Shown: one piece after another, positions 5,826 through 57,478 of the stretch | How positions within the stretch are numbered: the first letter of the stretch is position 1 | How the letters are laid out: each line of letters opens with the position of its first letter | From: a virus | Taxonomy: Duplodnaviria > Heunggongvirae > Uroviricota > Caudoviricetes | Strand: one strand, 5' to 3' | DNA: 64,000 bases | IMG/VR virus record: IMGVR_UViG_2703718815_000003 | Program-made: the position numbers and the translations under genes | The notes under the pieces: generated by a model | Databases searched by the model: none | What the model was told of the DNA's origin: nothing | What the model saw: only the letters and a program-made list of their open reading frames with translations

Positions 5826-6122
5826 GTGTTTTTCCTAATGCTTAAACAAGTTGTTTTCTTATTGGCTTTATTGTGATGTGGCATAAAAGGGGAGCAAGCT
5901 AAACGTAAAGGTGCAAACTCTCTATTTCGGTCAACGAAACACAAGGGCCATTTGGCCCTTGTCATTAACACGTTGCTTTACGGACTAGCGGATAAGCGAA
6001 GTAGATCGCCAGACCAATGAGGACGCCATCAGAAATGACAGACATCATCTTTCCCGTAAAATCCACCAACACCGCCATCACCAGAAGAGCAATGACGATC
6101 ACAAGCCGGAATCTCTCAAGCA

Positions 6123-6548
6123 TTAGAGATAAGCATCCAGTGACAACTGAAGCGCCTGGGCGATCTTTTTCAGTGCCTGCTCTTCTTGTTCACCAATGCC
6201 GTCCTGATCGGCAATATCAAGGCACAGACACAGAACATCGACCGCCTCTGGAGTACCCGCAATATCAGACAGCTCACGAATAGCCTGTGCATTAGCAGAA
6301 CGAGGGGACGCTTCGTAACGAGCACGGATATTGGCGCTCATTTGGGCAATTTCACCAGCAAACGGAGAAAACGCAGGCAGAGCTGCAATTGTCTTCTCAA
6401 GAATGGCAATTTCTTTTGCGTCACATGTGCCGTCGGCATAGGAGATCATGTACGCGCCCCACACGGTGGCCTCAACCGCATCACGGTTCTCCATTTTTTT
6501 GACTTCGATAACAGCTTTACGAGTTTTCTTTTTGAAGAAACCTAACAT
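6123..6548 (-). CDS. TerB-like domain protein
   Basis: 141-aa ORF; YADGTCDAKEIAILEK and C-terminal acidic helices resemble the TerB/DjlA-N fold; AGGAAA RBS. Confidence 0.45.
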   Translation of the reverse strand: MLGFFKKKTRKAVIEVKKMENRDAVEATVWGAYMISYADGTCDAKEIAILEKTIAALPAFSPFAGEIAQMSANIRARYEASPRSANAQAIRELSDIAGTPEAVDVLCLCLDIADQDGIGEQEEQALKKIAQALQLSLDAYL

Positions 6549-6641
6549 GTGCTTTCCTTTTATTATTTGTCAAAACAAGTTGTTTTCTAATTACATAAAT
6601 TGCTTACGCAGAGATGGTCAATGCATATGCACTAACAGCCG

Positions 6642-6830
6642 TCAGAAATAACCAAGTACCGAACCAACTGGAAAAACAAAAATCCCAACTACACGAGCCA
6701 AGGTCATGCCAGCCTGAAACTGGAGATCGCCAGAGCAAACAAGTTTTATAATGTTCGATACCCAACCGGCGGCCATAAGGGCAAGAATTGCCAGCCAAAT
6801 TTTTCCAAAGTGATTTGAAAACCAGTTCAT
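6642..6830 (-). CDS. small membrane protein
   Basis: 62-aa ORF with two hydrophobic helices. Confidence 0.3.
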   Translation of the reverse strand: MNWFSNHFGKIWLAILALMAAGWVSNIIKLVCSGDLQFQAGMTLARVVGIFVFPVGSVLGYF

Positions 6831-6839
6831 ACAACCGCC

Positions 6840-7334
6840 TTAGTCACAGCATGATCCTGAGTAACTGGATGAACTTGAGGTATCGCATCCACCGCCATCC
6901 CATCCAGAGTGACAGGACGCTCCACTGGAGTGGTGGTAATTGTCGTCGACGAAGGTGTGGTGATGGATGAATCCGGCATCAAAAGGCTCTGACCGGCTGG
7001 AACGGCTACCGTCGCCAGTGAAACTATAATGAGAACGTAGGCCATTGGTTTCAGCCTCTTTCTTTGAAAATTTTCCATTCGAACTGTCCTTGTTGTTTTT
7101 CTCCTTCACTAAAGGCCGTGCATTTTTCGCTTCGCGTGAAGAGCCAGAGGCAACAATCGCCCCCACGTTCGCAACAACTGACGCTTGATTATCTAAACGT
7201 TCATTCAGCAACCGAACGGTAGTCTCTAGTTCTTCAAGGCGTGACATAACACGACCGCTAAATAATTCGGCCAAAATTTGACGTAAAGAACGAGGGCGTT
7301 TAGTTACAGAAGTGAAATAGGTTTGACGTGCCAT
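6840..7334 (-). CDS. hypothetical protein (C-terminal half low-complexity; gene model uncertain)
   Basis: 164-aa ORF; N-terminal coiled-coil-like, C-terminal S/G/H/C-rich; overlapped by an alternative-frame ORF 6827..7078 that has a signal-peptide-like N-terminus. Confidence 0.3.
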   Translation of the reverse strand: MARQTYFTSVTKRPRSLRQILAELFSGRVMSRLEELETTVRLLNERLDNQASVVANVGAIVASGSSREAKNARPLVKEKNNKDSSNGKFSKKEAETNGLRSHYSFTGDGSRSSRSEPFDAGFIHHHTFVDDNYHHSSGASCHSGWDGGGCDTSSSSSYSGSCCD

Positions 7335-7354
7335 GTGGACTCCATCCAGTGTCA

Positions 7355-7385
7355 GAAAGAGTTGCGGCTGGCGATTGCCAGCCGC
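7355..7385 (-). terminator. stem-loop, candidate intrinsic terminator downstream of rnhA
   Basis: gcggctggc-gatt-gccagccgc 9-bp stem; flanked by T/A-rich sequence. Confidence 0.35.
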
Positions 7386-7482
7386 CTTTCTCGTTCCATC
7401 CTGGAACTGTGTCTTACCGACACATTGTCATCCTGACGCCGATAAGATACATGATTTAAAATGATAGGTAAACACTTACTTA

Positions 7483-8073
7483 CTATTTATTATAAACAAA
7501 ACCAATATCTTTCTTGTGAGGCATATCTGCTGCTGAAAAAGCTGCGATCTTCGCGAGTCGATCACATATTTCATTTTCACGATGCCCGGCGTGACCTTTA
7601 ACCCACTTCCAGCGAACATTATGTCGACTTGCGGCCTCATCCAGACGCTTCCACAGATCAACATTCTTTACCGGTTTTTTGTCAGAAGTCATCCATCCAT
7701 TGCGTTTCCACCATTTCATCCACTGTGTCATGCCGTTTTTCAGATACTGGCTATCAGAGTGCAAAATAACGTTGCATGGATATTTCAAACGCTCCAGCCC
7801 GATAAGTGCCCCCATCATCTCCATGCGGTTATTGGTGGTGCTATGAAAACCATCTGAGAACTCGCGTTCCTCACCACGATACTGGAGAACTATACCGTAA
7901 CCGCCCGGGCCACCCGGATTTTTAAGGCAAGAGCCATCACTGAAGATTTTCACGGTTTTAAGCTGGGGATTGAACTCTACGACAGGCGTTGTGGAATTGG
8001 TGCGGGGAGAATTTTTGTTTTTGGCTTTTTTGCGAGTTTTTTCTTGCGATCGGGCTGGTGTCTTCGTCGTCAT
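7483..8073 (-). CDS. rnhA: ribonuclease HI
   Basis: [47 protein letters not shown] motifs; start set at internal ATG 8073 with AGGAG RBS (ORF track extends to 8160). Confidence 0.85.
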
Positions 8074-8658
8074 ATAAACTCCTGAATCAAGCGCCGCGCC
8101 GATTTTTTTTCCTCGCGCGTGCGCACACGCGTGCGTGTTAATAATTATTAAAATAAACAAATTACTTCCCAGAACAGGTTTTTATAAACCTGAACTGAAC
8201 GAACGAAGTGAGTGAAGTTCACCTCGAACGAAGTGAGAGGTTGTCTTTTCAGGTAATACTCTCCCAGGGAGGTGAGTATAAAAATCCCTCACCAACCTGG
8301 TCGTTTCATAACCTGAAAAGTTATGGTCTAAGTCTACTGCCAGCTTAGACTTGGGAAGTTATGGATGACAGCACCCCAGAACCGAGATCTTCCCACACTT
8401 TATGAAGGGGAGTACTGGATTCAACCTCTCGAAACACCCCAGACTCGACAATCATAAAGTGACCCTTGTCTCCGCTCACTTTGGTTCCCCCTTCCCCGAC
8501 ACCTAAACGGCACCAGTTCTACGCTGGTAGTGAGCTTTTTTAAACCTGACGCCAGTGACGCTTACCCCCACCCATCAGGTCGAGTCTCCAGTCTACGACT
8601 GGAAACTATCAGATCTTAGCACTTACAATTCACTTTATGAATAGTTTGTACTTATCTA

Positions 8659-8913
8659 TCATTGTGATTGATTATTTTCTCTACCATGTAGTTGAACATT
8701 CAAGGCAAACACCTCATTGATCAACTCACCTAAAAGCTGTTCAACAAGTTCGCGATGCTCGCCAAGATGCAAGCACTTAATTGCCCATTCGTACAAGTTG
8801 AAAGCCTGCTCACGATCTTTCATCATTTCACGAGCCTGGGCCAGAAAATCGCTCTCTACGAGCGCAACGACATTAGTCGGGTATGACATGTTGGTTTCCT
8901 TAAAGTGGTTCAT
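8659..8913 (-). CDS. hypothetical protein
   Basis: 84-aa ORF. Confidence 0.35.
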   Translation of the reverse strand: MNHFKETNMSYPTNVVALVESDFLAQAREMMKDREQAFNLYEWAIKCLHLGEHRELVEQLLGELINEVFALNVQLHGRENNQSQ

Positions 8914-8994
8914 AAAATCGATTTTAAAGCGTCTGGGAAGGGGTTCTAGTGGATTCTGTAGTGATGTTCAGGTCTGGAGTCTCTGATACAAAAC

Positions 8995-9052
8995 AGCCTG
9001 CTTCCGTATATTAATAATTAATATGTAGTTATTTATATATACAGAAGCAGGC
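8995..9052. repeat. 57-bp palindromic element, copy 1 (cctgcttccgtatat / AT-rich spacer / atatacagaagcagg)
   Basis: 15-bp inverted repeat with one mismatch; near-identical element at 54318..54372. Confidence 0.6.
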
Positions 9053-9074
9053 TAATTACAGACGCCAGAACAAA

Positions 9075-9668: not shown

Positions 9669-9733
9669 CTTCTTTCTCGATAGGTAAGTAAATACCTATT
9701 TTTGCATTTGATTTTATGTCTGGCAATCAAATA

Positions 9734-9778: not shown

Positions 9779-9851
9779 TGGTGCTGGGTATGTGATTGGC
9801 TTACCCAGCACTATAAAGCTCTCTATGGGCTTTATTTTCAGTAGGGGAACG

Positions 9852-15620: not shown

Positions 15621-16763
15621 TTACAGGTCTGCAAACTGGCTTAGAGAAGCCTTGTCCACGGTAGAATCGATCTGACCTACCAGATATGTGCTTTGCTCTG
15701 CCTCTTGTGGTGCAATTTGCAGTGTGTCGGTTAACAACCACTTGTTCATCCAGACCAGCGGATCTGTGGTAACTTCTGGAAATAAAGCCTTCAGGCCAAG
15801 ACGATTCATAGCCAGATTGGTGCGGTATTTTACATAGGTCTTCAGAATATCCGCGTTTAAACCAATCATCGAACCGTCTTTGAAGAGATAGTCTGCCCAG
15901 TTCATTTCTTGTTCGGCGACTGATTTCATGGTGTCGTAAATGACGTTTTCTTCATCAGCAGCAATCTCTTTCCACAATAAACCTTCGCGACCGGTACGCA
16001 TGAAGCGGATCATGCGTTCAGTTCCTTCGCAATGCAGAGCTTCATCACGGGCAATAAAGCGCATAATTTTGGTGTTACCCTCAAGCAACTTCCGTTCGCC
16101 AAAGGCAAACGTACATGCAAAACTTACATAGAAACGGATCGCCTCAAGCGCATTAATGGACACCAACGTGCGGAAAAGCTGACGGTGCAAAGGGTATGGC
16201 TCCCAGCCATATTCATTTACGTACAGACGTTCAAACTCTTTCTCACCTAACGACTGGCGCTCGCAGGTCATCCCATAAAGCCTGTCATATTCAGCAGAGA
16301 TACTGATCGCTCGGTTGATGATTTCTTCATCCGTAACAATACCGTCAAAAACAATGCTCGGATCGTCCACCATGCCACGAATAATGTGGGTGTAGCTGCG
16401 GCTATGGATAGTCTCAGAGAAAGACCATGTTTCAACCCACGTTTCCAGTTCAGGAATAGAGATAAGCGGCAGCAGCGTTGCATTTGGGCTACGTCCCTGA
16501 ACTGAATCGAGTAACGTTTGATAACGGAGATTGCTCAGAAAAATGTGACGTTCGTGGTCCCGCAGCTTCGTGTTGAAGTCGATACGATCGCTCGAAATAT
16601 CAACTTCTTCCGGCCGCCAGAAGAAAGACAATTGACGTTCAATCAACTTTTCAAAATCACGGTATTTTTGCTGATCGTAACGTGCCACGTTGACAGATTG
16701 TCCGAGGAACATAGGCTCTTTGGTTGCATCATTAGCACCCAAACGGAACGTTGAATATGACAT
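15621..16763 (-). CDS. nrdB: ribonucleotide reductase class Ia beta subunit
   Basis: 380-aa ferritin-like protein with diiron/tyrosyl-radical context (EALHCEG) directly downstream of nrdA. Confidence 0.8.
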
Positions 16764-16869
16764 GTGTTTTTCCTTTTTCTTTTTTGGTGCGTTTAAACAA
16801 GTTGTTATCTTATGTGTTTAAACAAGGCTTACAAATCAAAGAGAAGGTGGGGATATCCCCCACCATATG

Positions 16870-27790: not shown

Positions 27791-28216
27791 TCAATCTTCT
27801 TGTTTAGGGAAAAACTGTTCAATAACTCTGTCAACGGCTGTGTCTATATGGAGTAGATGCCACACAACCATATCTTTGCTTCCCATGCCTTGTGTGAATA
27901 TCACGTCATACTTACGCCATGCGCAGTGGAACCAATATGCTGAGTCATCAATTGGTAAATCCTCTCCCGCCTCTTTGAAGTATTTCAGCAGCATTGCCTG
28001 CTCTGCCGTTGGCGTTGGACCTATTTCCTGAGCGTACATACGGATGAATCGCTGCCAGTCTGTCTCCTCGGGGGTTGGATCTGGTGGGGTCATTTCTGCG
28101 ATAGCGTTTCGTAGTTGATGCGCCCAATCAGGTTCAGGAAAGCCTTTTGCTGCTTCATCATCAATAACATCCAGAGCCACGTTTGCGGCATCGTAGAGTT
28201 TCTTAATAGCTGTCAT
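27791..28216 (-). CDS. hypothetical protein
   Basis: 141-aa ORF; AAACAAATTATTT palindrome-like motif upstream. Confidence 0.4.
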   Translation of the reverse strand: MTAIKKLYDAANVALDVIDDEAAKGFPEPDWAHQLRNAIAEMTPPDPTPEETDWQRFIRMYAQEIGPTPTAEQAMLLKYFKEAGEDLPIDDSAYWFHCAWRKYDVIFTQGMGSKDMVVWHLLHIDTAVDRVIEQFFPKQED

Positions 28217-28265
28217 GTTTTCTTATCCTTTTAAACAAATTATTTTCTTAATAAGATAATTGCGA

Positions 28266-29435: not shown

Positions 29436-31775
29436 TTAATCTTCTAGTTCTTCTGTTGGTGATGTCTTCTCTCGTCGGTCATCTATCGTCTGTAAAGCCG
29501 CAATGATTTCAGCTAGTGGCTTCTCCCGATACATCTCGACGATCTGTGATTTGGTGTATTTCTTGTCACCAATTTCAACTCGCCCGCTGGCGTTCTTTGG
29601 CAGGTATCCTTCTTCCAGCATGTACTCGACGAGCGACTCGATAACGTCGAGGCCACGAGTAGGATCGAAGTAGAATTTCCAGGTGCATTTGCCATACGGT
29701 GGTGCAACTTTGTTTTTGATGCACTCTGCGCCTACGTCCTGACCGATCTTCTCTTTCCCATCCTTCATCACCGATGCACCGAGACGGATGCGCACAGAAG
29801 CGTAAAACTTCGGTGAATCGCCGCCTGGCGACGTAGTAGGGTCGCCAAACATTACACCGATTTTTGTGCGAACCTGATTCAAGAAGATGATGCAGGCGTT
29901 GTATTTGCGTGCCCACAAAGCCAGAGTAGGGAAGTTCGCACTCGTCGCACGAGCCAGTGCCGTATTGTCGTTCATGTTCAGCTGATCTTTGTCTTTGGCA
30001 GTGCCTTCAGCCATCTTTTCGAACTTCTCGGCTTTGGAGTTCGGAACCATAGACGCAAGTGAGTCAGCCACGATACAGATAGGTGCTGATTCAGGAATAA
30101 GCTCTTCATCACGTACCAATTTAAGAATTGTGCCGATCAACTCTACAGAGTCTTCGAAGGTATCAGGCTGCTTGTATACCCACTGACCGTCATCCTCATC
30201 TGCGTTCAGACCATTGGCGACAGCCAGGCCAACGTCAAAACTGTTTTCATGATCGAGGAATACCGCCAGACCATCTTGTTTTTGAGCGGAGATCATCGCT
30301 GCTGTTGCAAGGAATGTGTTGTGGCTGATAATCCCGTTAGACCAGAAAGAGTGTGTTTCCGGCATCGCTACGTCGAACGTTGGTGCTTCACCTTCCTCAA
30401 TAGCCACGACTTCGTCGTAGAACAAGTTAGAGCCAATTACCGCTGCCAGTTGTGCAAACAGATGCTCGTTAAAACGATTCTTTCTGCCAATGAAGGAGAC
30501 ATAGATTTCTCGCAGTTTGTCTATTCCGACACGATCGCCGCGGCCAATAACGTGGTCTACCAGAGCGTAGTCTTCACGGGTGGTCTTGGTGAGCGACTCG
30601 TAGAGTGATTTCACTAAGCCGCTGATGTGCGGAACATAGCCTGAGTAAGTGCGGTCAAAACCAATGTCCCGTTTGGTTGCCACTGATAAACGTGCCGGAG
30701 ATTCGAAACCAATCGTTGACAGAAAAAGGTCGTAATTAGAGCCACTGAATGACAGCCGGTAATATGTATTTTCATAACCCGCGACGTGTTTTTCAGAGAT
30801 AGTTGACGTAATCCCCAGATTCAGGAGCATGAGGCGAATTTGCTGTAGCAGCAGCCCACTCGCGCTCACAACCTCAATGCAGCGACCATCATTGACGTGG
30901 CATTCCAGCTCAAAGTAGCCGCGAAGGAATGCAATTTGAGCCTCGCTATTGGCGCGACGCACACTCAACGGAACCTGCTTGCCAGCAGCTTTCTCATACT
31001 CCAGACCATATTCTTTAAAAAGCAGCGAACGCACCTCTTTGCTAAACAGCACATGGTCTTCCGAGCCGTTATGTTTTCTCGTAACTGGCATCTTGTCTGA
31101 TACCAGCGAAATGAGGCGGTAGTACTCATCCTTGATGAAAGGATCTGTGTTAGAAAAATTCACTGAATTTTCAGAGGCCACGTATCCGTCAGCAATTAAA
31201 TAGCCCATCAGTTTTGCGATATTGGCATCCAGGTGCTGATCGCCGAATTGATGTGTGCCAACCATTGAAGGAATCGTGTCGCCTACACTGATTTTTTCAG
31301 CATGTCGCCAGACGACATTACCTAAGTCGTCAACCACACGGATTGGGTGACGGAACGTAGCCTCGATATAACCGCCTGATGCCAGCTTAATACGCTTGAA
31401 TTTGCGACGGTTGTTCCATGTCAGGTGTGAGGTCTTCTCTATCACGCCATTTTCATTGATGAGTCCAACGTTATGCTCTACATCGCGAGTAGTGCATGTC
31501 GCTTTGTACCCTTCAATCTCAAACAACTCTTTCACTGTTACCATTCCACGCTCCGTCAGCAGCATGGTGTCTGCGGTAACACATTTCCCTGCACTTGGAG
31601 GACCGAATACTTCGACGATACGACCACATGGGAAGCCGCCATCGTAACGACCGGAAATAGCTTTGTTTAACGGTGGAAAGCCTGTATCAATCCAATGAGT
31701 TACTTTCTGAATTTCGTCGTTGCTACCGATTTTCTTTTTCAGAGCAAGTGCCAGTGCGGATTTTCCTTTTGCCAT
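29436..31775 (-). CDS. RecA-like recombinase interrupted by an intein
   Basis: extein: Walker A GPPSAGK|T split by insert, plus NQVRTKIGVMFGDPTTSPGGDSPKFYASVR RecA core; extein about 357 aa. Confidence 0.8.
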   Translation of the reverse strand: MAKGKSALALALKKKIGSNDEIQKVTHWIDTGFPPLNKAISGRYDGGFPCGRIVEVFGPPSAGKCVTADTMLLTERGMVTVKELFEIEGYKATCTTRDVEHNVGLINENGVIEKTSHLTWNNRRKFKRIKLASGGYIEATFRHPIRVVDDLGNVVWRHAEKISVGDTIPSMVGTHQFGDQHLDANIAKLMGYLIADGYVASENSVNFSNTDPFIKDEYYRLISLVSDKMPVTRKHNGSEDHVLFSKEVRSLLFKEYGLEYEKAAGKQVPLSVRRANSEAQIAFLRGYFELECHVNDGRCIEVVSASGLLLQQIRLMLLNLGITSTISEKHVAGYENTYYRLSFSGSNYDLFLSTIGFESPARLSVATKRDIGFDRTYSGYVPHISGLVKSLYESLTKTTREDYALVDHVIGRGDRVGIDKLREIYVSFIGRKNRFNEHLFAQLAAVIGSNLFYDEVVAIEEGEAPTFDVAMPETHSFWSNGIISHNTFLATAAMISAQKQDGLAVFLDHENSFDVGLAVANGLNADEDDGQWVYKQPDTFEDSVELIGTILKLVRDEELIPESAPICIVADSLASMVPNSKAEKFEKMAEGTAKDKDQLNMNDNTALARATSANFPTLALWARKYNACIIFLNQVRTKIGVMFGDPTTSPGGDSPKFYASVRIRLGASVMKDGKEKIGQDVGAECIKNKVAPPYGKCTWKFYFDPTRGLDVIESLVEYMLEEGYLPKNASGRVEIGDKKYTKSQIVEMYREKPLAEIIAALQTIDDRREKTSPTEELED
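30318..31583 (-). mobile_element. intein with LAGLIDADG homing-endonuclease domain inside the recombinase P-loop
   Basis: begins with Cys after GPPSAGK, block B TFRHP, LAGLIDADG-like LMGYLIADGY and LRGYFELE, ends ...IISHN followed by Thr (+1 nucleophile). Confidence 0.7.
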
Positions 31776-39781: not shown

Positions 39782-41890
39782 TCACTTTAAAATGATACGA
39801 GATAGTTCAGTAACTACAGATGAACCAAGACTATCAACGCTCGTTACCAGGGCATGATTTGAGTAAAATCTCTCCGGTGCATCAGTCATGATGCCAATTG
39901 CCATCAAATCAATGTCAGTCTGCGTTTCAATTTGCTTCGCAACTGAACGCAAATGAGCGTCAAAACCTCTCCCAACAGCCCACGGCGCGCCATCACTCAG
40001 AACAAGCATGATCTTCCTGTCCTCCAAGCGACCGGAAAATAACGATGCAAGGCTGGCTATGCTTTCACCATCCACGTTATTAAGAAGTGGGAATGTGTAG
40101 CCTACGCACCCCATACGTGAGCGAACTTCGCGAGAATTTGCTTTTTCATTCCAATTTTTGATGATAGGTAGCATTAAAGATTCAAAGCGAGAGAACTCAT
40201 ATTTGATAGCCTTAAGTTCTCCTGCTGCCATATGACTGCCAAATGTAGTGAAGCCGGTGATAATGTTGGGAACATTTATTCGATCAAGTGCATCGGCGAT
40301 GGTATATGCACTTGCAAGAGCTAGTTTTATCGTTTCGCCACTCATTGAACCCGATAAATCAATCACTTGTTGAACACAGGCGTTAACGGCTTTAGATTCT
40401 TCTTTTTTACGAAACACGCGATCATCATTCATTGTTAATCTGTAGATACTTGAACCATGAATGCGCCCCCGACGCTGGCCAGGTATAAACTGAACTCTGT
40501 TTCTGCTTGCTATTGCACGTTCCAGGTCTTTTGCCAGCGTCGACGAAACACCTGACGAAAGGTGCTTTTCAATATATTTGTCGAAGAGTTGGTTGCCTTC
40601 AGGAACGATGCGATAACGGCTGATTGGATATCCACCTAAATCAATATCGGAGAATGTTTTAATAAGCCGTTTGATATGGGCTTCTGCCTGATCAATCGAG
40701 CCGATGAAGTCGTATGAGCGATTGTATGGCCTGTATTCGCTTTTCGAGCTTTCTGTTAACTCGCTTTTAATCGTTTCGGATAGCGCATCTTCTGTCATGC
40801 CTCCGACTTCATCTTCCATGCTATCCAACTCCTCTAAAGCCTCTTCCAGACTCATTTTTGACGGAGTTGGAATGTCTGAAGAGCCGTCTTCTGTCGTTTT
40901 TCTTTTTTCGTGGTCAGCGGTTAATGATTCTGACGCCGCGTTATCAGAAGCATCAGAATCTGATACCGCTTTATCATTTTCTGTATCATCGAATATTGTT
41001 TCTGATGATTCAGGATTATCTGAATCATCACTGTCGTTATTATCATTTTTGTGCTTACTATGTGACTCTGATTTAATAGATTTGTGATTATCTAACGATG
41101 AGGGTGTCTCATGATCTTCGTTGTCTTCATTGTTTTCTCCAGAGGCATCCGTCTGGTCAGCGTCTGAAGGATCGGAAGTTTTTCCCGGAGCTGACTCCTT
41201 ACCTTTGCTTTCACTTTCAGTGTCTTTGAGGATCTTAGCTATGGTCGCAGCCACCTTTACACAATCCTCGGTGCAAGACATGTTACGCACGGCCACATCG
41301 ATACCATGTTCTTTTAATAATGAAATTGGTTTCTCAATGACAGGCCAATATTCATCCATGAAATCTACGAACGGTGCTTGGCCATCCCAGGCTCTTACAA
41401 CCGGACAGAGAAAGAAGTTTAGAACAAGCGCGCGCTGATCTTTGCCACAATAAGCAATAGCCTCTGAAGCCTTTGGTTTAAAGACTTTTTCGATTATAAG
41501 GCGCTGAGTTGCCATCAGATTACGTCCTGTTCCGTTAAAGACCTGACCCATTTTTCGCTCGATGAACACGTCTTCTAAGGCATTCCATAGCGACCAGGAA
41601 GGAACGCGTCCTTTTTCTCTCATTTTGTTGGACACACGAATATCGGTAAACAAAATGTGAGCAACCTCATGATCGAGAAATCCGCGCACAGCATTCATCA
41701 ATGCCGGTGTTGCGTTATCCGGGATTGATGGGATGTTTACGAGAATTGGCTCTCCATCATCGTTATAGCGTACATAAGCGTCGTCCCCTCGTTCTGCAAC
41801 AGGGATGTTTTTACCTGAAAGGAGAGCGACTACTCGTTTTACACTGTCACGGAAGTCCTGAACCTCTTTGATGGAACGTTTTTTAGACAT
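39782..41890 (-). CDS. von Willebrand factor A domain protein, CobT-like
   Basis: central acidic low-complexity region; C-terminal vWA with MIDAS motif DLSGSMSGE. Confidence 0.65.
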   Translation of the reverse strand: MSKKRSIKEVQDFRDSVKRVVALLSGKNIPVAERGDDAYVRYNDDGEPILVNIPSIPDNATPALMNAVRGFLDHEVAHILFTDIRVSNKMREKGRVPSWSLWNALEDVFIERKMGQVFNGTGRNLMATQRLIIEKVFKPKASEAIAYCGKDQRALVLNFFLCPVVRAWDGQAPFVDFMDEYWPVIEKPISLLKEHGIDVAVRNMSCTEDCVKVAATIAKILKDTESESKGKESAPGKTSDPSDADQTDASGENNEDNEDHETPSSLDNHKSIKSESHSKHKNDNNDSDDSDNPESSETIFDDTENDKAVSDSDASDNAASESLTADHEKRKTTEDGSSDIPTPSKMSLEEALEELDSMEDEVGGMTEDALSETIKSELTESSKSEYRPYNRSYDFIGSIDQAEAHIKRLIKTFSDIDLGGYPISRYRIVPEGNQLFDKYIEKHLSSGVSSTLAKDLERAIASRNRVQFIPGQRRGRIHGSSIYRLTMNDDRVFRKKEESKAVNACVQQVIDLSGSMSGETIKLALASAYTIADALDRINVPNIITGFTTFGSHMAAGELKAIKYEFSRFESLMLPIIKNWNEKANSREVRSRMGCVGYTFPLLNNVDGESIASLASLFSGRLEDRKIMLVLSDGAPWAVGRGFDAHLRSVAKQIETQTDIDLMAIGIMTDAPERFYSNHALVTSVDSLGSSVVTELSRIILK

Positions 41891-41988
41891 GGCTAATCCT
41901 TTGTTATGAAAACAAATTATTTACTAGTGTGTTTAATGTAGCACTGCGCGAACAGGGAACTAAGCCATTCGCGCAGGGAGAAGAGGGG

Positions 41989-42201: not shown

Positions 42202-42377
42202 TCAATCAATCCATTCTAACTTATACTATGGTAAGGAATACTACTAAAATTTGTATCAATACTGAATACATTCATATCATATGCAAGTTGATTTTCTTAC
42301 CTGTTTTGGGCTAATTTTTCTCCGTGCAATGGCCTTTAAACGGTCTTTTAAGTGCCTATCGAAAAAATGATAATAGC

Positions 42378-42405
42378 TTTACAACCCTAACCTTTGATGT
42401 AATAT
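42378..42405 (+). promoter_or_regulatory. candidate sigma70 promoter for the XRE regulator gene
   Basis: TTTACA - 16 nt - TAATAT, followed by palindrome GGTAAGCACTTACC before the start codon. Confidence 0.4.
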
Positions 42406-42451
42406 CGGTAAGCACTTACCAGAGAGAATTGAACGCGCAAAGGTTGTAACC

Positions 42452-42838
42452 ATGTCTGATAACAAGATTGAATTTATAGAAAGTCGCTACGCTGCTTTTA
42501 TCGCAGGGTTGATTGAATCCTCACCTATGAGCCAGGCCCAGATAGCCAAAACAATTGGGTATAAAAACGCCAACAACCTTTCTTTAATTAAAAGCGGCAA
42601 AATTCCTTTGCCTATCGATAAGGTTCGTCCGCTGGCGCTGGCACTGGGCATTGAGCCAAGTCGTCTTATGATGATGGTGCTGGAAGAACGCCAACCCGAA
42701 CTCGCAGCATTTTTATACAAAGAAGGCACTGCTCCTCTTAACGAGGACGAAAAACAGGTTCTTGCTGCATATAACGAGCGATTCGGTAAAGAGAAAGGCG
42801 CATCACAAAAGGTTGTTGAGGCCATAAAGTCTCTATGA
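42452..42838 (+). CDS. XRE-family helix-turn-helix transcriptional regulator
   Basis: HTH SQAQIAKTIGYKNANNLSLIKSGK; plus-strand gene convergent with recombinase. Confidence 0.65.
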   Translation: MSDNKIEFIESRYAAFIAGLIESSPMSQAQIAKTIGYKNANNLSLIKSGKIPLPIDKVRPLALALGIEPSRLMMMVLEERQPELAAFLYKEGTAPLNEDEKQVLAAYNERFGKEKGASQKVVEAIKSL

Positions 42839-46438: not shown

Positions 46439-46514
46439 TGGTGCCGGTTAACGGATTCGAACCGCCGACCATTCGCTTACAAGGCGACTGCTCTACCAAC
46501 TGAGCTAAACCGGC
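46439..46514 (-). tRNA. tRNA-Thr (anticodon UGU), CCA encoded
   Basis: manual fold: acceptor GCCGGTT/AACCGGC, D-arm GCTCAGTTGGTAGAGC, anticodon loop CTTGTAA, T-loop TTCGAAT. Confidence 0.75.
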
Positions 46515-46518
46515 AATT

Positions 46519-46605
46519 TGGTGGGGAGTGATGGAGTCGAACCACCCGAGTCGCAATGACAGTAGATTTACAGTCTACACCGCTACCTCTACGGACTAAC
46601 TCCCC
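46519..46605 (-). tRNA. tRNA-Tyr (anticodon GUA), CCA encoded
   Basis: manual fold: acceptor GGGGAGT/ACTCCCC, anticodon stem GTAGA/TCTAC with loop CTGTAAA, long variable arm. Confidence 0.75.
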
Positions 46606-46610
46606 TAAAT

Positions 46611-46685
46611 TGGCGATGGTGGGTGGATTCGAACCACCGACCAGTTGGTTAACAGCCAACTGCTCTACCGCTGAGCTACACCATC
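46611..46685 (-). tRNA. tRNA-Asn (anticodon GUU), CCA encoded
   Basis: manual fold: acceptor GATGGTG/CACCATC, anticodon stem GTTGG/CCAAC with loop CTGTTAA, T-loop TTCGAAT. Confidence 0.75.
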
Positions 46686-50820: not shown

Positions 50821-52074
50821 TTACGATAGCGCCTTAATGCCCAAAACCTTGCTTTGCAACTCCAACTGTTTGGTATACGGTTTTGCCCGATAATAGGCTT
50901 TGATAATTTGTTCTGGCGTTGCATCGCCTGGGTCGAGTCCTTCCTCGCCCAAACATGCTACTTTGACATTAAGACCAATACTGGTCAGTCGCCTGGCTGC
51001 GGCCATAGTGTTGCGTATAGCTTGCTTTTCACTATCCCACATCATGATCACATTACGTAATCCACGCGCCTTGAGCGTCAGGAACGCGCCCAACTGATCT
51101 TCTGCATCCTGAGTGGTGTTACCAGATAGATGCATCCCGAACGTTCCTATCGGTTCCACGTAATCACGTAATGTTTCTTCATCAAAAATAGCTCGTTTAA
51201 CTCCCATAACATCGAACGCCCCCTCACAGACAACTACAGTCTGTTTGCCGACCGCATTATGGCCGTTGTAGAGAAACTTACCTGAAGCTGGAAGCTGCAT
51301 AGGAAAGAGGTAGCGACGTTCAGCTGTACCGGTAATGTCTCGCCCCTGAAATGTCTTCATTACCCCATCCAGATCGTAAACCGGTATCAGTATTCGCATA
51401 TCGAATATCTGTCCTTTAACCTGATCTGTATACGGATCTACATAAGCGTGCTTGCCTTCGACGCAGTATCGTAGGTCAAAATACTTTGCCATTTCAGGTG
51501 ATATGTTTCGTTCAACCAGATAGTCTGGAAGACGGCCATCTATAGGAAGCTCGTAATGACGAGGGAGTGCAACTGGCCCCTCTAACTCGACTGTGCTTGC
51601 AAGCACTAGCTCTTCTTTCTTTGGTGCCCACCCCTGGGAAAGAAGGGCGTTCTGCACATATTCCTCGAACTGTCGTCGTGATTTGCCGCTGTAGTGCTTG
51701 AGGAAGACCAGCTTATTGAACTGAATCTCTTCGGGATGATCACCAGCGAAGCATTTACCGACGCCACTGGTCAGATTGAAATATACCTTCCAGTTGGAGC
51801 TGCCGCATACCGGACACTCTTTGATATTCACTTCACGACCGCGAGCACTCACGCCTCCACGTCGATAAACGATACCTTCAGTATCCAACCATTGTTCAAA
51901 ATCTAATTCGGCAATTAGCTCTTTCAGCTCGCTCACGATAATTCCACTTTTAACAGGCAATATTGTGACCAACCTAAATGTTGATATAACATAAAGGCTC
52001 ATGTGTTTTTCTTTTGTGGTTTGGCAAAAGAAAAGTTGTTTCACCAATGAATCAAGCGTGGAGGTGTTCTCCAC
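50821..52074 (-). CDS. DNA primase (zinc-ribbon + TOPRIM)
   Basis: CPVCGSS...GKCFAGDH zinc-binding segment; TOPRIM VVVCEGAFDVMGV and later IMMWDSE. Confidence 0.7.
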   Translation of the reverse strand: MENTSTLDSLVKQLFFCQTTKEKHMSLYVISTFRLVTILPVKSGIIVSELKELIAELDFEQWLDTEGIVYRRGGVSARGREVNIKECPVCGSSNWKVYFNLTSGVGKCFAGDHPEEIQFNKLVFLKHYSGKSRRQFEEYVQNALLSQGWAPKKEELVLASTVELEGPVALPRHYELPIDGRLPDYLVERNISPEMAKYFDLRYCVEGKHAYVDPYTDQVKGQIFDMRILIPVYDLDGVMKTFQGRDITGTAERRYLFPMQLPASGKFLYNGHNAVGKQTVVVCEGAFDVMGVKRAIFDEETLRDYVEPIGTFGMHLSGNTTQDAEDQLGAFLTLKARGLRNVIMMWDSEKQAIRNTMAAARRLTSIGLNVKVACLGEEGLDPGDATPEQIIKAYYRAKPYTKQLELQSKVLGIKALS

Positions 52075-52083
52075 GCTTATTTT

Positions 52084-53424
52084 TTAGGTAACGTCTAAGA
52101 TTCGCTCAATGAAGCGCATTTGTTCGAGGTTTTGTTTAACGCGAATGCTGATCCCTCCCTGCTGGTTACGCGAACCAGCAAAGTAGAGACGAGCCTCTCC
52201 TTTCGCTTCTTCTTCTTCGGTTTTGTTGATCGTTATTACCAGGTCAGCAATACGTACTTTTTCGATGTTGTCGGCAGCGTGCATCATTGTGGCAACTTCT
52301 GACGCGCCACCTTCACGGTTTGTTTGCGATGCTGTGATACCAGCAACGTTGTGTTTGTCATAAAGAGCACGTAAATCGGTGTAGATACTACGAATGTTGG
52401 CGCGATCATCACGAAGGTCATAACTGGCACGCATCAAATCTGCGTAGTCGACAACAAGCATGTCAGGCACCATGCCATTGGCTTTCATGCTGTTAAGCAT
52501 ACGGTCCAGATCTGCCGGTGACATACTTCCTGACGGACGCTCAACAACCCACAAACTACCAATCCCCTTAGTGGCTCCCAACTCTGCCAACTTACGATGA
52601 ACTTCATCGCGCCGTTCCACCAGCTTGGACATTTCCGTCTCCGACAATCTTGCATCAAAGCGGTCGGACAAAATGTTGGTGTGAACCTCCAGCGAGAGAT
52701 ACAGAACATTGTAGCCAGCAAGCGTTGCGTTTATGGAAAACTCACCCATTGCGGTCGATTTACCGGATTTAGCGAACCCCATGAAAAGCACCATTTCGCG
52801 CTTTGCCCAGCCTTTTTGGTACAGCAACCTATCGAGAAGAGGGAGTCCTGTTGTAATACTGTTTGGTACATACTCCTCTGAAGCCTCATATTCACGCGCT
52901 TTCAATCGCTCACTTGCGGAGGTGTAGTAGTCATAGATTCCGGTCGCTTCGTTCGATCCAATCTGCTGAACCTTGGCCATGATTGCCATCGCCCCCTGAA
53001 AGTCGCCTTTCTCTTTCAGTTCAGCAGCCTTAATCAGAGCATCATCAAACGCTACGCTTTTTGCGAAGGTTGATACCTGGTCAACCATGTACGAGGTATC
53101 GGACAATTTTTCTGCAAGGATGCGCTTAAACGCAGCAACAACATCGGCGAATAGTTCCTCACGGATAGTCTTATCGCGTTTCGCACGCTTAAGCATATCC
53201 AGAATTGCAGATGAAGAGGGCGCGCTCTTGTACATACGGTAATAGCCCGAAACCATATTAACCAATATGGCATTGGCCGCATTGGCAAATTGGCTAGGCA
53301 CAACCAGATCTCCCGCACGAGTAAGAAACTCGTGATCACGACAAAAATATGCCGTCAGTCTGTTCTGGAAATCTTCATCAAACTCTTCGGACAGCCCGCG
53401 TCCTGTATGGCAAAGTTCGGTCAT
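52084..53424 (-). CDS. replicative DNA helicase, DnaB family
   Basis: Walker A GFAKSGKST in C-terminal RecA-like domain, N-terminal helical domain; adjacent to primase. Confidence 0.7.
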   Translation of the reverse strand: MTELCHTGRGLSEEFDEDFQNRLTAYFCRDHEFLTRAGDLVVPSQFANAANAILVNMVSGYYRMYKSAPSSSAILDMLKRAKRDKTIREELFADVVAAFKRILAEKLSDTSYMVDQVSTFAKSVAFDDALIKAAELKEKGDFQGAMAIMAKVQQIGSNEATGIYDYYTSASERLKAREYEASEEYVPNSITTGLPLLDRLLYQKGWAKREMVLFMGFAKSGKSTAMGEFSINATLAGYNVLYLSLEVHTNILSDRFDARLSETEMSKLVERRDEVHRKLAELGATKGIGSLWVVERPSGSMSPADLDRMLNSMKANGMVPDMLVVDYADLMRASYDLRDDRANIRSIYTDLRALYDKHNVAGITASQTNREGGASEVATMMHAADNIEKVRIADLVITINKTEEEEAKGEARLYFAGSRNQQGGISIRVKQNLEQMRFIERILDVT

Positions 53425-53467
53425 GTGCTTTCCTTTGTTTTTTAAACAAATTGTTTTCTAGTATTAG

Positions 53468-54217
53468 TTAATTAGATAGGGGATCAATAAACCGCCGTGC
53501 TTCTTCCAGTTCTTCTGGAAAGTGGGCGGAAATAAGGCGCTCTGGAACGATTTCCATTAGCCAGATAGCGGAGAAAATTGCGCGTATGCGCTTGCTGCGG
53601 GGGATGGTGCGTAAACGCTCCAGAATCCACTCAAAATAGCTTTCCTGGATCGGGTTGAACTGCATGTCTCCTATATGCTTAAAGCTAACCAGAGAGTCAT
53701 CCAGACGGGTTGTTGCGCGTCTGGCTAATTTCTCTTCAAATATCTCAATCAGTTCTGGCTGCCACAAATGCTGTGGGCGAGGCAGCTTGTCCCACAGACG
53801 TCGTGCAGCTGCGGAAAGAACGGTGGAGATAAAGTAGTCGTATGAGCAGCAATAGCGGTCAGCAAACTGGCGTGCTTTCCATAGCGACGTTTTATTGGCA
53901 GTCGACAACTCCTGATAAGGCAGGCGTTTTAACCCGGTGGTGAACGGAGCTGTTTCAAAGTGTTCGCGACCGTGCGTCAGCATGATATTTGAGTACTGAC
54001 GTTTGTATGCCTCCGTAAACAGACAGGTGGCCATAAGAGGATGCATGTCGCGGTAATCAAACCACTTCGTATCGAAGAGTTCAGCCTCGTCTTTGCAGCG
54101 CGACAAACCAATGTTTTCAGCAACCCACTTATCCATAACAGCGGTATTCCACTCTGTCATGAAGTCGTACTGGTCGTTGTCGATGGTGTCGAAAAAGATT
54201 TGGCTCATGTGGCTCAC
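53468..54217 (-). CDS. hypothetical protein (position suggests helicase-associated function)
   Basis: 249-aa ORF immediately upstream of the helicase gene. Confidence 0.35.
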   Translation of the reverse strand: MSHMSQIFFDTIDNDQYDFMTEWNTAVMDKWVAENIGLSRCKDEAELFDTKWFDYRDMHPLMATCLFTEAYKRQYSNIMLTHGREHFETAPFTTGLKRLPYQELSTANKTSLWKARQFADRYCCSYDYFISTVLSAAARRLWDKLPRPQHLWQPELIEIFEEKLARRATTRLDDSLVSFKHIGDMQFNPIQESYFEWILERLRTIPRSKRIRAIFSAIWLMEIVPERLISAHFPEELEEARRFIDPLSN

Positions 54218-54317
54218 CTGGTAGGTAGTTACTTACTTATCACAATGAGCTGATGATAGCGATTGGTGGCAGTTTTTGGAAGTGGAAACGGAAGGGAGTT
54301 GTTCTGGTGGGTATCTT

Positions 54318-54372
54318 TTGAAAGACCTGCTTCCGTATATTTAATAAGTTACTTATTATTTATATACAGAAA
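54318..54372. repeat. 57-bp palindromic element, copy 2
   Basis: cctgcttccgtatat ... atatacagaaacagg; near-identical to 8995..9052. Confidence 0.6.
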
Positions 54373-54386
54373 CAGGTCATGAATAC

Positions 54387-56090
54387 TTAATTATTAAGCA
54401 ATCTGCTCACACGTAGTTTGTTAAGACTTGATCTAGAGGCCAGTTTCGTTAATGCACCTATTGCTTTATTCGTGATTTTTTGCTGTTCTTCTGTTAGTTC
54501 TTGCATACTTTTGAATCTGAGCAACCCCTTTCTCACTAAATCCAAAGCATCCTGATTGCGGGATAATATCCACTTTAAATAATCATCTTCAGAGAAACTG
54601 TTAAGATATGCTATGTCACTATGATTAAATTTGCCTTCAATTATTTTGTATAAAACATTCTCTAAATTAGTCTCTTCAGGCTTCTTATTCATCAATTTTT
54701 TTTGAATTAGCAGACCTAACTTTTCGTTACCAAATATCTCTACATACAAATTCCGAAAAGCAGTATAAGCATCATCTTGGCTAACAAAGGCATCTGCATA
54801 TGCCTCTATATAACTATCACAATCAATCTCCAATCTATTTAAGATATCAATCAAGCCTATGAAGTGAGCAACAGGTATGTGTGAAAGATTGTCGTTAATT
54901 ACACATTTTATCTTAGAAATAAACTCAGATTCATTGTCCTTGAATGAGTCACTAAAAATATCCCAAACATTGTTAACCTCACATAAAGCCTTGTGTTCTT
55001 TATATTGTTTATTTTTTTCTTCTATTATACCTCGAATATTGCTTTCAGTAGAAAGATAACCATTCTTGAGATAAAAATCTATGTCATCATCGAAAGCAAT
55101 TTCCGCTCGTTCATAAATAATATCAAGACTATTAATAAATGAATATACAGAATCATCCTTTTTATCATCTAACATGTAATCAAATACATGTATGTTTTTA
55201 ATTGATTCTTTAAACAAGGCATAATCAACACCTGGAACACCAGAATAGTAAACCACTGAAAACAGAACCAATCTATTGATAAAACTTTCTCTAACCTTAT
55301 CCTCTGCCAAGCTTAGCTCATTCCTAAGATTAACCAGAGATGTTTTTATTTTATTTAATATACGGATATTTTTAATGCCTAAGTCATTTGCTAAGACTTT
55401 TAACAAAAGAAAATCAGAATCAGTTTCATAAAAAACTTTACGTAAGTTCTTCTCAGGCGTAGGATCGTATTTTATTTCGACATCAATTACTTTTTCTCTG
55501 TACTCTAAAAACTGTTTTTTTGCAGTTTCATCATGTAAATTATCTTCATTTAAAATTAGAACAACTTTGCAGCCTTTTCTTCTTGCCAATTCATCAATTA
55601 CCCCCATAATTTCTTTAACTTCTAGCGAATTACCTTTTCTTTCAACATCATCAATACAAACCAAATAATTATTAACAAATTTATACTCAAGAGATGACAG
55701 CAGGTTATCTGTTTTGAACCCAAAAAAATCGTTCTTTCCGAAATGTATTAAAAATTTTGACAAGGAGTTGTATTTCAACCATCCCAAAAACCCATTTCTA
55801 TAACGAATCATAGTTCGATCCGTTTCAGATAAAATTAGTTCTTTATATTTCTTTTCATTAATTGGTGTGGCACAATGATAAAGAGCTTTTTTAATATCAC
55901 CAATAGAGTTAACCCCAAACAAAGAAACATACGAATATGCATTAAAATCTAATCCTTCAGAATGCTTAGTATAAAAACTATTCCAATAATGAGTTTTACC
56001 AACGCCCCAATCTCCTTTTATGACGGCAACCCGATGATCTGAAACTAGAAAATTTTTTAGAAATGATTCTATCGATTCCATTAGTATCAA
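54387..56090 (-). CDS. KAP-family P-loop NTPase
   Basis: KAP-type Walker A GDWGVGKT and Walker B-like LVCIDDVER; gene markedly more AT-rich than neighbours. Confidence 0.6.
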   Translation of the reverse strand: MILMESIESFLKNFLVSDHRVAVIKGDWGVGKTHYWNSFYTKHSEGLDFNAYSYVSLFGVNSIGDIKKALYHCATPINEKKYKELILSETDRTMIRYRNGFLGWLKYNSLSKFLIHFGKNDFFGFKTDNLLSSLEYKFVNNYLVCIDDVERKGNSLEVKEIMGVIDELARRKGCKVVLILNEDNLHDETAKKQFLEYREKVIDVEIKYDPTPEKNLRKVFYETDSDFLLLKVLANDLGIKNIRILNKIKTSLVNLRNELSLAEDKVRESFINRLVLFSVVYYSGVPGVDYALFKESIKNIHVFDYMLDDKKDDSVYSFINSLDIIYERAEIAFDDDIDFYLKNGYLSTESNIRGIIEEKNKQYKEHKALCEVNNVWDIFSDSFKDNESEFISKIKCVINDNLSHIPVAHFIGLIDILNRLEIDCDSYIEAYADAFVSQDDAYTAFRNLYVEIFGNEKLGLLIQKKLMNKKPEETNLENVLYKIIEGKFNHSDIAYLNSFSEDDYLKWILSRNQDALDLVRKGLLRFKSMQELTEEQQKITNKAIGALTKLASRSSLNKLRVSRLLNN

Positions 56091-56102
56091 TCCTTTAATT
56101 CA

Positions 56103-56129
56103 TATATTGGGCGTAACAAACGCCCAATA
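56103..56129. repeat. hairpin/palindrome between parG-like gene and KAP NTPase gene
   Basis: atattgggcg-taacaaa-cgcccaatat 10-bp inverted repeat. Confidence 0.5.
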
Positions 56130-56132
56130 TAA

Positions 56133-56492
56133 TCAACCTTTCTTCATCAACTCTCGTTTAATTTCATCGGTACGCATCGTAACGTCGGCAGCTGTGATCG
56201 CCTCGTTAAGCTTCACGATGTCCTCGATTTCCTGCGGTGACTTCTCTGCCAGATGGAAAATGGCTGCTCGAATCACGTCAGAACGAGTGAACTTCTCGAA
56301 GCGAGGGATGAACTTCATCATCTCCAGCAGTTCGAAGTATTCGTCCTCCAGTGACATTGTGCGGCTTTTAATTTTCTCTTTGCCACGAGTCGGGCGTCCC
56401 TGTGGTCTGACTGGTTGGCGCAAAGGAGTTGTGTTCTTAGCCGGTGCATCAGGCTCTTTGCGCTTTGCTAGGTCACCCATTTTCATGGACAT
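56133..56492 (-). CDS. ParG/ParB-like small partition protein (RHH-type, tentative)
   Basis: 119 aa; basic disordered N-terminus, C-terminal strand-helix-helix-like segment; start overlaps parA stop. Confidence 0.45.
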   Translation of the reverse strand: MSMKMGDLAKRKEPDAPAKNTTPLRQPVRPQGRPTRGKEKIKSRTMSLEDEYFELLEMMKFIPRFEKFTRSDVIRAAIFHLAEKSPQEIEDIVKLNEAITAADVTMRTDEIKRELMKKG

Positions 56493-57160
56493 TATTCTTC
56501 TTCCTCCAGACTCAACAGATAATCTACAAATTCTTCAAACTCGGCTTCCGCCTTTTTGTCGCGCTCGCTACCGGTCATTTCAAAGATAGAACGACCAGAC
56601 TCTTCCGCATCATCATAGACGTTGCGGTTATATAGATTGACTGGCGCAGACTCGATTCCAAACGTCTCAACAATCTCTTTAGCCGCCAGAATGCGAGACA
56701 CTTGTGATGGCAAAGCCGGGCACTGGTTCATGACCGCGCGGACCTTCACTTTATCGTTTACATTGCGAACATTGTCGATAATAGGATCGATGTCACGTAA
56801 AGATTTCAAATCACGACGCTTAGGACGCAGCGGGATAATGATAACGTCAGCCATCAGCATCGCTTGTCGCTGAATTTCGGAGTCGAAGCCACCAGCATCT
56901 ACCACTACAAACTCAGCTCTACCCTGAAGCGATTTTAGGTGCTTAATGATGTCATCCTGAACGTATGCAAAAGGAATCAGCTCAAGGTCTTCGTTCTGTC
57001 GACGGTCTTCACACCAGCTCGTTGTCGTGCGCTGAATATCTATATCGGTAATATAAACCTTCTTCTTCTTTTTGACTTTCAGGCAAACGGCAATTTGCTG
57101 GGCAACGGTGGATTTGCCAGGCCCGCCCTTTGTGCCGCCAACCACAAAGATCTTGGTCAT
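56492..57160 (-). CDS. parA: ParA-family partition ATPase (small type Ib)
   Basis: deviant Walker A VVGGTKGGPGKST, Walker B FVVVDAGG. Confidence 0.8.
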   Translation of the reverse strand: MTKIFVVGGTKGGPGKSTVAQQIAVCLKVKKKKKVYITDIDIQRTTTSWCEDRRQNEDLELIPFAYVQDDIIKHLKSLQGRAEFVVVDAGGFDSEIQRQAMLMADVIIIPLRPKRRDLKSLRDIDPIIDNVRNVNDKVKVRAVMNQCPALPSQVSRILAAKEIVETFGIESAPVNLYNRNVYDDAEESGRSIFEMTGSERDKKAEAEFEEFVDYLLSLEEEE

Positions 57161-57478
57161 TGGAGAGTTCCCTTTGCGTATATAATTATCGTCTGAAACA
57201 ACTTGTTTTCTTATATGTGATATAGCCTAAATGCCTACGGCTGCGGTGTAAAGGTTAAATGGTAGGTTGTGATTAACAATTGGCAATCATAGCTTGTATT
57301 TGTCTGTTGAAAAAAGTAACAATGACCTCTATATTACAAGTACGGTGATATGCCGTACACAATTTGATAATGCACACGTAATGGGCTATAGCCTTTTAAA
57401 GTAATTTTTGAGTCGAAAACTCAGTTTGAACAGAGGAGATTGATGGCCTTCCTACATCACGGCCATCAGGAGGAATAC

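Follow-up and report, generated by a model that had tools for sequence, protein, structure and literature searches.

A conserved AAACAA-N-TTGTTT palindrome as a candidate dispersed DNA operator in SSU5-like phage-plasmids

The operators of the P1 repressor C1 are 17 bp long and asymmetric, and are located at many operons, including that of a DnaB-type helicase gene. The L5 stoperators, which are the sites of gp71, are asymmetric sequences of 13–14 bp that are present in about 20–30 copies and spread through the late operons. The OB site of KorB in RK2 is a 13-bp palindrome of the 6-1-6 type dispersed over promoter regions, and its regulator is the partner of a ParA ATPase. Here we analysed a palindrome, AAACAANTTGTTT (AAACAA-N-TTGTTT), in a stretch of 64,000 nucleotides, hereafter the window, from the Caudoviricetes virus record IMGVR_UViG_2703718815_000003. 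Judged by sequence identity, the window is an E. coli SSU5-like phage-plasmid with the relatives Cyrano, pHCM2 and pMT1: it is 97–99% identical to E. coli phage-plasmids of this type (phage Cyrano, CMS-2020a and pEC7518-111k) and ~82% identical to Salmonella phage SSU5, and its 50–58 kb stretch is matched by 737 plasmid records. Clinical E. coli, Klebsiella, Salmonella and Enterobacter commonly carry SSU5-like phage-plasmids, and S. Typhi pHCM2 and the backbone of Y. pestis pMT1 also belong to this group. The literature that we searched contains no description of the motif, nor of the lysis-lysogeny or copy-number control of SSU5-type elements. The palindrome is a real, selected and element-wide cis-regulatory site, and the reading that we favour, with about even confidence, is that it would serve as a dispersed DNA operator for a repressor encoded by the element.

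Scanning of the window revealed clear enrichment of the motif, with four exact copies (starting at 5844, 6573, 53444 and 57196) against 0.03 expected, a count that no shuffled sequence reached. When one mismatch was allowed, there were eight copies against 0.51 expected, the additional ones starting at 1304, 16795, 28233 and 41910, and again no shuffle gave eight. At up to two mismatches the count was 11 against 6.8 expected, so that the three extra matches are at chance level. The placement of the eight copies is strictly intergenic: all of them lie outside open reading frames (ORFs), although 87% of the window is coding sequence (P ~8e-8), and a first-order model of the AT-rich intergenic DNA alone yields 0.09 expected copies. 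The exact, one-mismatch and intergenic-model counts thus rule out chance or AT-rich composition as the cause of the copies. Seven of the eight copies sit 16–35 nt 5' of start codons on the minus strand, which carries nearly all genes of the window. The original prediction had placed the palindrome just upstream of selected start codons, and these counts and distances agree with it; the frequency in coding regions is not similar to that in intergenic DNA. The 13-mer core is symmetric, and the consensus on the coding (minus) strand, A[T/C][A/T]AGA-AAACAAnTTGTTT-AA, adds a one-sided AGA flank, so the motif is not wholly symmetric. This flank points with the gene in seven of the eight window copies and in 14 of the 18 copies of Cyrano.

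The identities of the genes downstream of the copies were checked with Pfam, and all six genes for which perfect or near-perfect copies had been predicted were found to have one. On the minus strand, the site ATAAGAAAACAACTTGTTTAAG (5841–5862) is located 18 nt 5' of the start of the gene at 5256–5825, whose product of 189 aa has no Pfam family; a terminator-like hairpin (5962–5941) lies upstream of this site, and the PGAP annotation of a close relative leaves the same stretch intergenic. The site ATTAGAAAACAACTTGTTTTGA (6570–6591, minus strand) is located 24 nt before the TerB-like gene at 6123–6548 (Pfam TerB, E=2.4e-7), and ATAAGATAACAACTTGTTTAAA (16792–16813, minus strand) 31 nt before nrdB (15621–16763), with the nrdA terminator (16864–16846) upstream of it. 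In the nrdB copy, an unusual T at core position 1 completes a TAAGAT hexamer resembling a -10 element, and the upstream TTGTAA/TTGAGC-16-TAAGAT arrangement is kept between the window and SSU5. The site TTAAGAAAATAATTTGTTTAAA (28230–28251, minus strand) precedes the DUF7238 gene at 27791–28216 by 16 nt; its core starts at 28233 rather than at 28232, as first given, and is perfect in pEC7518-111k and Cyrano. The site ACTAGTAAATAATTTGTTTTCA (41907–41928, minus strand) lies 19 nt before the CobT-like gene (39782–41890), and an extended -10-like sequence, TGCTACATT, ends 12 nt upstream of its core. This copy had been predicted as a degenerate one; it is present, but as a good member of the family with one mismatch, and it is perfect in SSU5, K. 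pneumoniae and pMT1. The site ACTAGAAAACAATTTGTTTAAA (53441–53462, minus strand) is located 19 nt before the DnaB-like helicase gene (52084–53424) and only 12 nt past the stop codon of the upstream gene, and ATAAGAAAACAAGTTGTTTCAG (57193–57214, minus strand) is located 35 nt before parA (56492–57160).

The eighth copy, GGTAGAAAACAATTTATTTAAG (1298–1319, plus strand, core at 1304), was absent from the earlier list. It carries the flank on the opposite side, lies 74 nt from the next start and is of an 'upstream-type', positioned between a hairpin (1317–1337) and a -10-like element, TGTGAAAAT, that faces the gene at 774–1229. The same arrangement occurs at 85818, 97190 and 93114 in Cyrano and at 85602 and 88319 in SSU5. 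The hairpins at 1258–1283 and 1317–1347 score as terminators on the plus strand only, and the neighbouring genes are all on the minus strand; hairpin 1317–1347 stands directly after the reverse-oriented copy. Reverse-oriented copies were considered as leaders of reverse genes and rejected, since they run into the adjoining terminator hairpins with no conserved ORF after them; a small-RNA reading of these copies finds no consistent support in the orientation of the U tracts. The degenerate copy proposed before the primase gene, AAACAACTTTTCT on the minus strand (52029–52041), has two mismatches and is probably not a member of the motif family. It was not counted because matches of this quality are at chance level, the AGA flank is absent, and in a variant haplotype the core is altered and the palindrome lost.

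Comparison of haplotypes revealed that the site is conserved under selection. Among 80 IMG/VR loci, ~30 distinct haplotypes from upstream of the helicase gene retain TAGAAAACAA-N-TTGTTTAA; the central base may be T, A or C, and a single rarer haplotype, seen at 2 of the loci, is altered in the right half-site. Upstream of parA, the site and the 35 nt before it are invariant in 15 haplotypes, whereas the leader between the site and the ribosome-binding site (RBS) varies. Over greater distances, the neighbouring non-coding DNA has diverged and the site with its AGA flank forms a conserved island. This holds before the helicase gene, where four lineages were compared, and before parA, where E. 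coli, SSU5 and K. oxytoca were compared; when E. coli is set against K. oxytoca alone, the DNA before parA has no conserved island other than the site. The two half-sites are equally conserved and the central base is free, which is the pattern of a twofold-symmetric protein site. No compensatory changes between half-sites were seen among the variant copies. In RNA form the site reads AGAAAACAAnUUGUUUAAGG, and the hairpin of the palindrome has a folding energy of -0.7 kcal/mol (z = +0.6 versus shuffles); the minimum free energy ranges from -0.3 to -0.7 kcal/mol in leaders where the palindrome arms pair, and none of the leaders is more stable than its shuffled versions. A stable RNA hairpin or an intrinsic terminator was ruled out by this negligible folding energy and by the Rfam search of the window, which gives only three tRNAs (genes within 46442–46685, minus strand).

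The motif is spread across the whole element and its enterobacterial relatives, with 18 copies in Cyrano, ~20 in SSU5, 17 high-scoring sites in pEC7518-111k and 6 in Y. pestis pMT1. Outside the window, it precedes ~10 small early genes of no known function, and in SSU5 a copy followed by a terminator stands ahead of ant. In the leader of terS, a gene of the late operon outside the window, two tandem copies 25 bp apart (57 and 82 in Cyrano, 56 and 81 in SSU5, 28564 and 28589 in pMT1) lie ahead of a GC-rich hairpin with a U tract, which in turn precedes the RBS, a layout that looks attenuator- or antitermination-like. No copy was found at the plasmid initiator gene repA. The copies at the early genes, terS and ant indicate a regulon wider than replication and maintenance, and the original proposal that the site co-regulates a set of replication and maintenance genes does not hold in that form. 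In the K. pneumoniae and K. oxytoca relatives, whose helicases are 92% and 68% identical, the site is kept at the helicase gene and at cobT or parA, while the motif is absent from the 41 kb scanned in an Acinetobacter relative (37% identical). A pattern scan of IMG/VR returned chiefly single chance matches, together with multi-match contigs of ~100 kb resembling SSU5.

Analysis of the position of the site relative to predicted promoters and -10-like hexamers suggested three arrangements. In ~10 early units, the core is located 13 ± 1 nt downstream of an extended -10-like element, TGnGATAAT or TATTAT (TGGTATTAT), which would place it at roughly +8 to +20; cobT in the window fits this arrangement with a gap of 12 nt. 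At nrdB (TAAGAT), parA (TATAAG) and the helicase gene (TAnnAT), the core overlaps the predicted transcription start, and the TAnnAT of the helicase gene, 4–5 nt before the core, is retained in the Salmonella and Klebsiella lineages. In the third arrangement, an inverted copy is located ~19 nt upstream of the -10 element, between the hairpin of the upstream gene and the promoter, either alone (1304 and its relatives) or paired with a downstream copy at a distance of 51 bp. With the promoters as predicted, these upstream-type copies are outside the 5' untranslated region (5'UTR) of the gene that they face; a site acting on DNA explains them and a site acting on mRNA does not.

Expression in the lysogen was assessed with the published supplementary table of Cyrano lysogen RNA-seq (PMC9928086; normalised counts, median 9.8), whose values were matched to the motif positions in Cyrano. 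The site-bearing units show counts of 6–25, near background, even those with near-consensus extended -10 promoters; the helicase gene has 21 against 6 for the gene immediately upstream, and the parA operon reaches 50–89. This pattern fits repression, with autoregulation at parA. In the mechanism that we propose, a dimeric DNA-binding protein encoded by the phage-plasmid would bind AAACAA-N-TTGTTT with its AGA flank, at positions overlapping or just downstream of the promoter or 5' end of ~18–20 transcription units, eight of them in the window. The bound units would be held off or throttled in the plasmid (lysogenic) state, through blocked binding or escape of RNA polymerase or through a roadblock. 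Action on DNA, repression as the effect and the promoter positions are what we infer from the arrangement of the sites. The near-fixed place of the copies upstream of the RBSs of several operons marks a shared cis-regulatory site, as originally proposed, and an operator is its likeliest kind.

Several observations weigh against a DNA operator. A strict sigma-70 scan calls no promoter beside most copies of the window. Its call at parA, TTGCCA-16-TACCAT, lies 50 nt upstream and would leave the site within the 5'UTR. The early cassettes are paralogous, so their fixed spacing from the -10 element was possibly inherited rather than selected, in part through duplication of promoter cassettes. In the lysogen, low expression is common to every lytic gene, and that of the site-bearing units is therefore not specific. 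The one-sided AGA flank and the constant place just 5' of the Shine-Dalgarno sequence also fit an mRNA site. The half-site centres are ~7 bp apart, which is unusual for helix-turn-helix (HTH) dimers, and none of the candidate binders has a match to a recognised DNA-binding family.

The main rival is an RNA operator in 5'UTRs read by a FljA-family protein, which would form a T4 RegA-like translational regulon of early, replication and partition genes, and we consider it unlikely. In Salmonella, FljA acts on the fliC mRNA leader: its binding blocks translation and leads to decay of the mRNA. All enterobacterial relatives have a gene for a FljA-family protein of 173 aa (PF03614, E=1e-80, with weak Hfq/LSm similarity) outside the window, at 100780–101301 in Cyrano, 96897–97418 in SSU5 and 69358–69879 in pEC7518-111k; it is a core gene, present in 831 plasmid records including pMT1, and is expressed in the lysogen. 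A PDB search revealed no solved relative of this protein, and it was not found in Acinetobacter relatives, one of which also lacks the motif in the region scanned. The forward copies, with their oriented AGA flank, are without exception downstream of the likely transcription start and upstream of the Shine-Dalgarno sequence, and the short distance of the helicase copy from the upstream gene is what is expected within a polycistronic mRNA. Salmonella and Citrobacter fliC leaders carry CAAGTTGT ~20 nt before the ATG, and in local alignment of the fliC leader with the element leaders, 7 of 500 shuffles reached the maximum score (p ~0.014); however, the mean-score test is weak (35 of 500 shuffles, p ~0.07) and the comparison was chosen after seeing the data. 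A weight matrix of the sites gave no significant match at the Salmonella, Citrobacter or E. coli fliC loci, and the E. coli fliC leader is dissimilar to the element leaders. Recognition of single-stranded RNA would need no palindrome, and the hairpin is negligible. The upstream-type copies lie outside the 5'UTRs of the genes that they face, and if the predicted -10 hexamers at nrdB, parA and the helicase gene are real, transcription starts inside the palindrome. Core-to-ATG distances range over 11–35 nt, so that the Shine-Dalgarno sequence would not generally be occluded directly, and the leader of the FljA-like gene itself has no copy. It is therefore doubtful that a FljA-family (Sm-like) fold, that of the flagellin phase-variation repressor, has been recruited as a global translational repressor of ~20 early, replication and partition mRNAs.

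A version of the DNA operator that names its binder is of similarly low probability. It assigns binding to the ParA partner, a protein of 119 aa encoded directly after parA (56133–56492, minus strand), which would autoregulate parA and act globally at the other copies, possibly with the sites as a dispersed centromere. This protein is the best candidate binder in the window: it is expressed in the lysogen, its family is narrow and confined to motif-carrying elements, and its SRTMS-EDE ... FTRSDVIRAAI block (a putative strand-helix-helix) is invariant among homologues that are otherwise ~50% identical and share the same site. Besides the site, no conserved non-coding island lies upstream of parA, and the par locus has no repeat array that might act as a classical centromere. 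Among the site-bearing units, only the parA operon shows clear expression in the lysogen, as autoregulation predicts. By analogy with ribbon-helix-helix proteins and MatP/matS, a compact 6-1-6 palindrome would suit a single-groove binder. However, the ParA partner has no Pfam or PHROG function match and no PDB sequence match, an hhalign comparison with ParG gave 0.1%, and there is no evident route for lifting its repression upon induction. The plasmid pMT1, which has lost the ParA pair and kept six copies, was considered as a natural experiment; it speaks at most weakly against this protein and was set aside as uninformative because the divergence is too recent. A distinctly less probable explanation is a positive or temporal-class promoter element for an activator or polymerase modifier encoded by the element, with the second palindrome family described below marking another class. 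The absence of a canonical sigma-70 promoter at most window copies, the two mutually exclusive palindrome families at equivalent intergenic positions and the copies in the terS leader would suit such an element, but near-consensus extended -10 elements, which should work without an activator, stand upstream of many copies, and a repressor rather than an activator would be expected at a site whose centre is near +14 or at the transcription start. Least probable of all, to the point of being hardly credible, is a passive repeat, either a remnant of duplicated terminator-promoter cassettes (T4 PeSL-like) or a site of a host architectural protein such as IHF. The early-gene copies do lie within clearly paralogous cassettes of ~60 nt, and the core agrees with 7 of 9 specified positions of the IHF consensus WATCAANNNNTTR; at the helicase gene, parA and cobT, however, the surrounding DNA has diverged and conservation is confined to the core and the AGA flank, and the strict conservation that the motif shows at its 12 specified positions is not a feature of known IHF sites. 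The DNA operator for an element-encoded repressor is the reading that we retain.

Two further proteins were considered as binders of the operator. The XRE-type HTH repressor-like gene adjoining the integrase gene (42452–42838, plus strand; Pfam HTH_19) is expressed in the lysogen, but its product is unlikely to be the binder: its own control region upstream (42202–42451) has no motif copy, and its Acinetobacter homologue pairs with a palindrome of 5-4-5 geometry. The divergent region 42202–42451, between the HTH gene and a gene for a 70-aa protein, contains GGTAAG/CTTACC repeats, including the palindrome GGTAAGCACTTACC at 42407, and may, with this separate motif, constitute an immunity switch. 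The other candidate is CYRAN_117 (92 aa), which is also expressed in the lysogen and whose N-terminal strand region is less conserved.

Analysis of the remaining intergenic regions revealed a second palindrome, TAAGT-N4-ACTTA (about TAAGTAnnTACTTA), with 14 copies in the window at up to one mismatch against 1.7 expected, among them those at 2496, 7465, 9685, 14520, 23920, 27754, 29376, 34167, 39750, 47439, 47819, 54222 and 59792. It is probably the 'first' palindrome implied by the original prediction. There are 22–26 copies per genome, including the structural and lysis region, and they occupy other intergenic regions, just 5' of RBSs. The two families alternate: cobT carries AAACAA-N-TTGTTT and the next gene TAAGT-N4-ACTTA, and likewise the gene before the helicase carries TAAGT-N4-ACTTA and the helicase gene AAACAA-N-TTGTTT. 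TAAGT-N4-ACTTA may be the site of the conserved HTH repressor. In the Acinetobacter plasmid CP081146, a distant relative, a dispersed palindrome, TCAGTCA-N4-TGACTGA, is located upstream of the cobT-like gene, the helicase operon, the holin gene and others (570, 15808, 19334, 24534, 31831, 32282, 34413 and 40692), and the ORF at 30921–31367 (minus strand) of this plasmid is an unannotated homologue of the HTH repressor of the window in a syntenic position. The 5-4-5 geometry of the Acinetobacter palindrome matches TAAGT-N4-ACTTA, not the 6-1-6 motif. The presence of a different palindrome in this plasmid looks like operator turnover between lineages.

The window contains a replication, nucleotide-metabolism and recombination module, the par locus and the repressor-like gene adjoining the integrase gene, and the tail-fibre and lysis region begins within it. 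Between the par locus and the helicase operon, the stretch 54001–56090 has a GC content of 33% and carries a KAP-family P-loop NTPase gene (54387–56090); Cyrano has a different gene at this place, and the KAP-family gene is probably an inserted defence-type gene. The ORF at 29436–31775 (779 aa) is RecA in the Cyrano annotation and a LAGLIDADG homing endonuclease according to PGAP, the recombinase of SSU5 has 358 aa, and the ORF probably encodes an intein-containing recombinase. CYRAN_43 (Cyrano 40268–40822, corresponding to a position near 44–46 kb of the window) is expressed in the lysogen ~700-fold over the prophage background in the published table, for which a small RNA is a possible cause.

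The ~18–20 units with a conserved operator-like site define a regulon, and the site provides an experimental handle on its regulator and on the lytic and replication genes. If the ParA partner were the binder, partition would be linked to global phage control; if the FljA-like protein were, an RNA-binding flagellin-repressor fold would be linked to it, and this clinically widespread family of plasmid-phages, with pHCM2 and pMT1 among its members, would have a RegA-like regulon.

In its likely mode of action, the motif resembles the P1 C1 operators, the L5 stoperators, and the KorB OB and omega sites. Membership of the P1, L5, KorB or omega families is not claimed because the element offers candidate binders only and the ParA partner shows no ParB, HTH or ribbon-helix-helix signature. 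On the RNA side, FljA/fliC and T4 RegA resemble the present case in having leader sites near the RBSs of replication and nucleotide-metabolism genes and in the FljA-family protein that the element encodes; however, RegA sites overlap the start codon, whereas the core here ends 11–35 nt before the ATG, and for FljA/fliC the similarity to the fliC leader is marginal and some copies lie outside 5'UTRs. The start-associated sequence (SAS) of Cluster K mycobacteriophages is likewise a repeated 13-bp motif just before the start codons of a subset of genes, with its function unresolved, but it is asymmetric, includes the RBS and lies 3–8 bp from the start, whereas the present motif is palindromic and 11–35 nt away. 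The RK2 KorB OB and pSM19035 omega sites share with it a dispersed palindrome at replication, partition and other operons, with one copy before parA; the ParA partner here differs in having no ParB/HTH or ribbon-helix-helix family match. The L5 stoperators are alike in size, in copy number and in lying in short intergenic gaps, mostly oriented with transcription, which here applies to the AGA flank only, and the helicase copy resembles them in having no obvious promoter of its own; in contrast to them, the core here is symmetric and concentrated at early and replication units, and it is TAAGT-N4-ACTTA whose distribution is closer to that of the stoperators. In the P1 C1 network, although the core here is a 13-bp palindrome with candidate binders only, the host element is likewise a phage-plasmid, and one short operator stands over many operons, including that of a DnaB-type helicase gene, with the lytic functions silent in the plasmid state.

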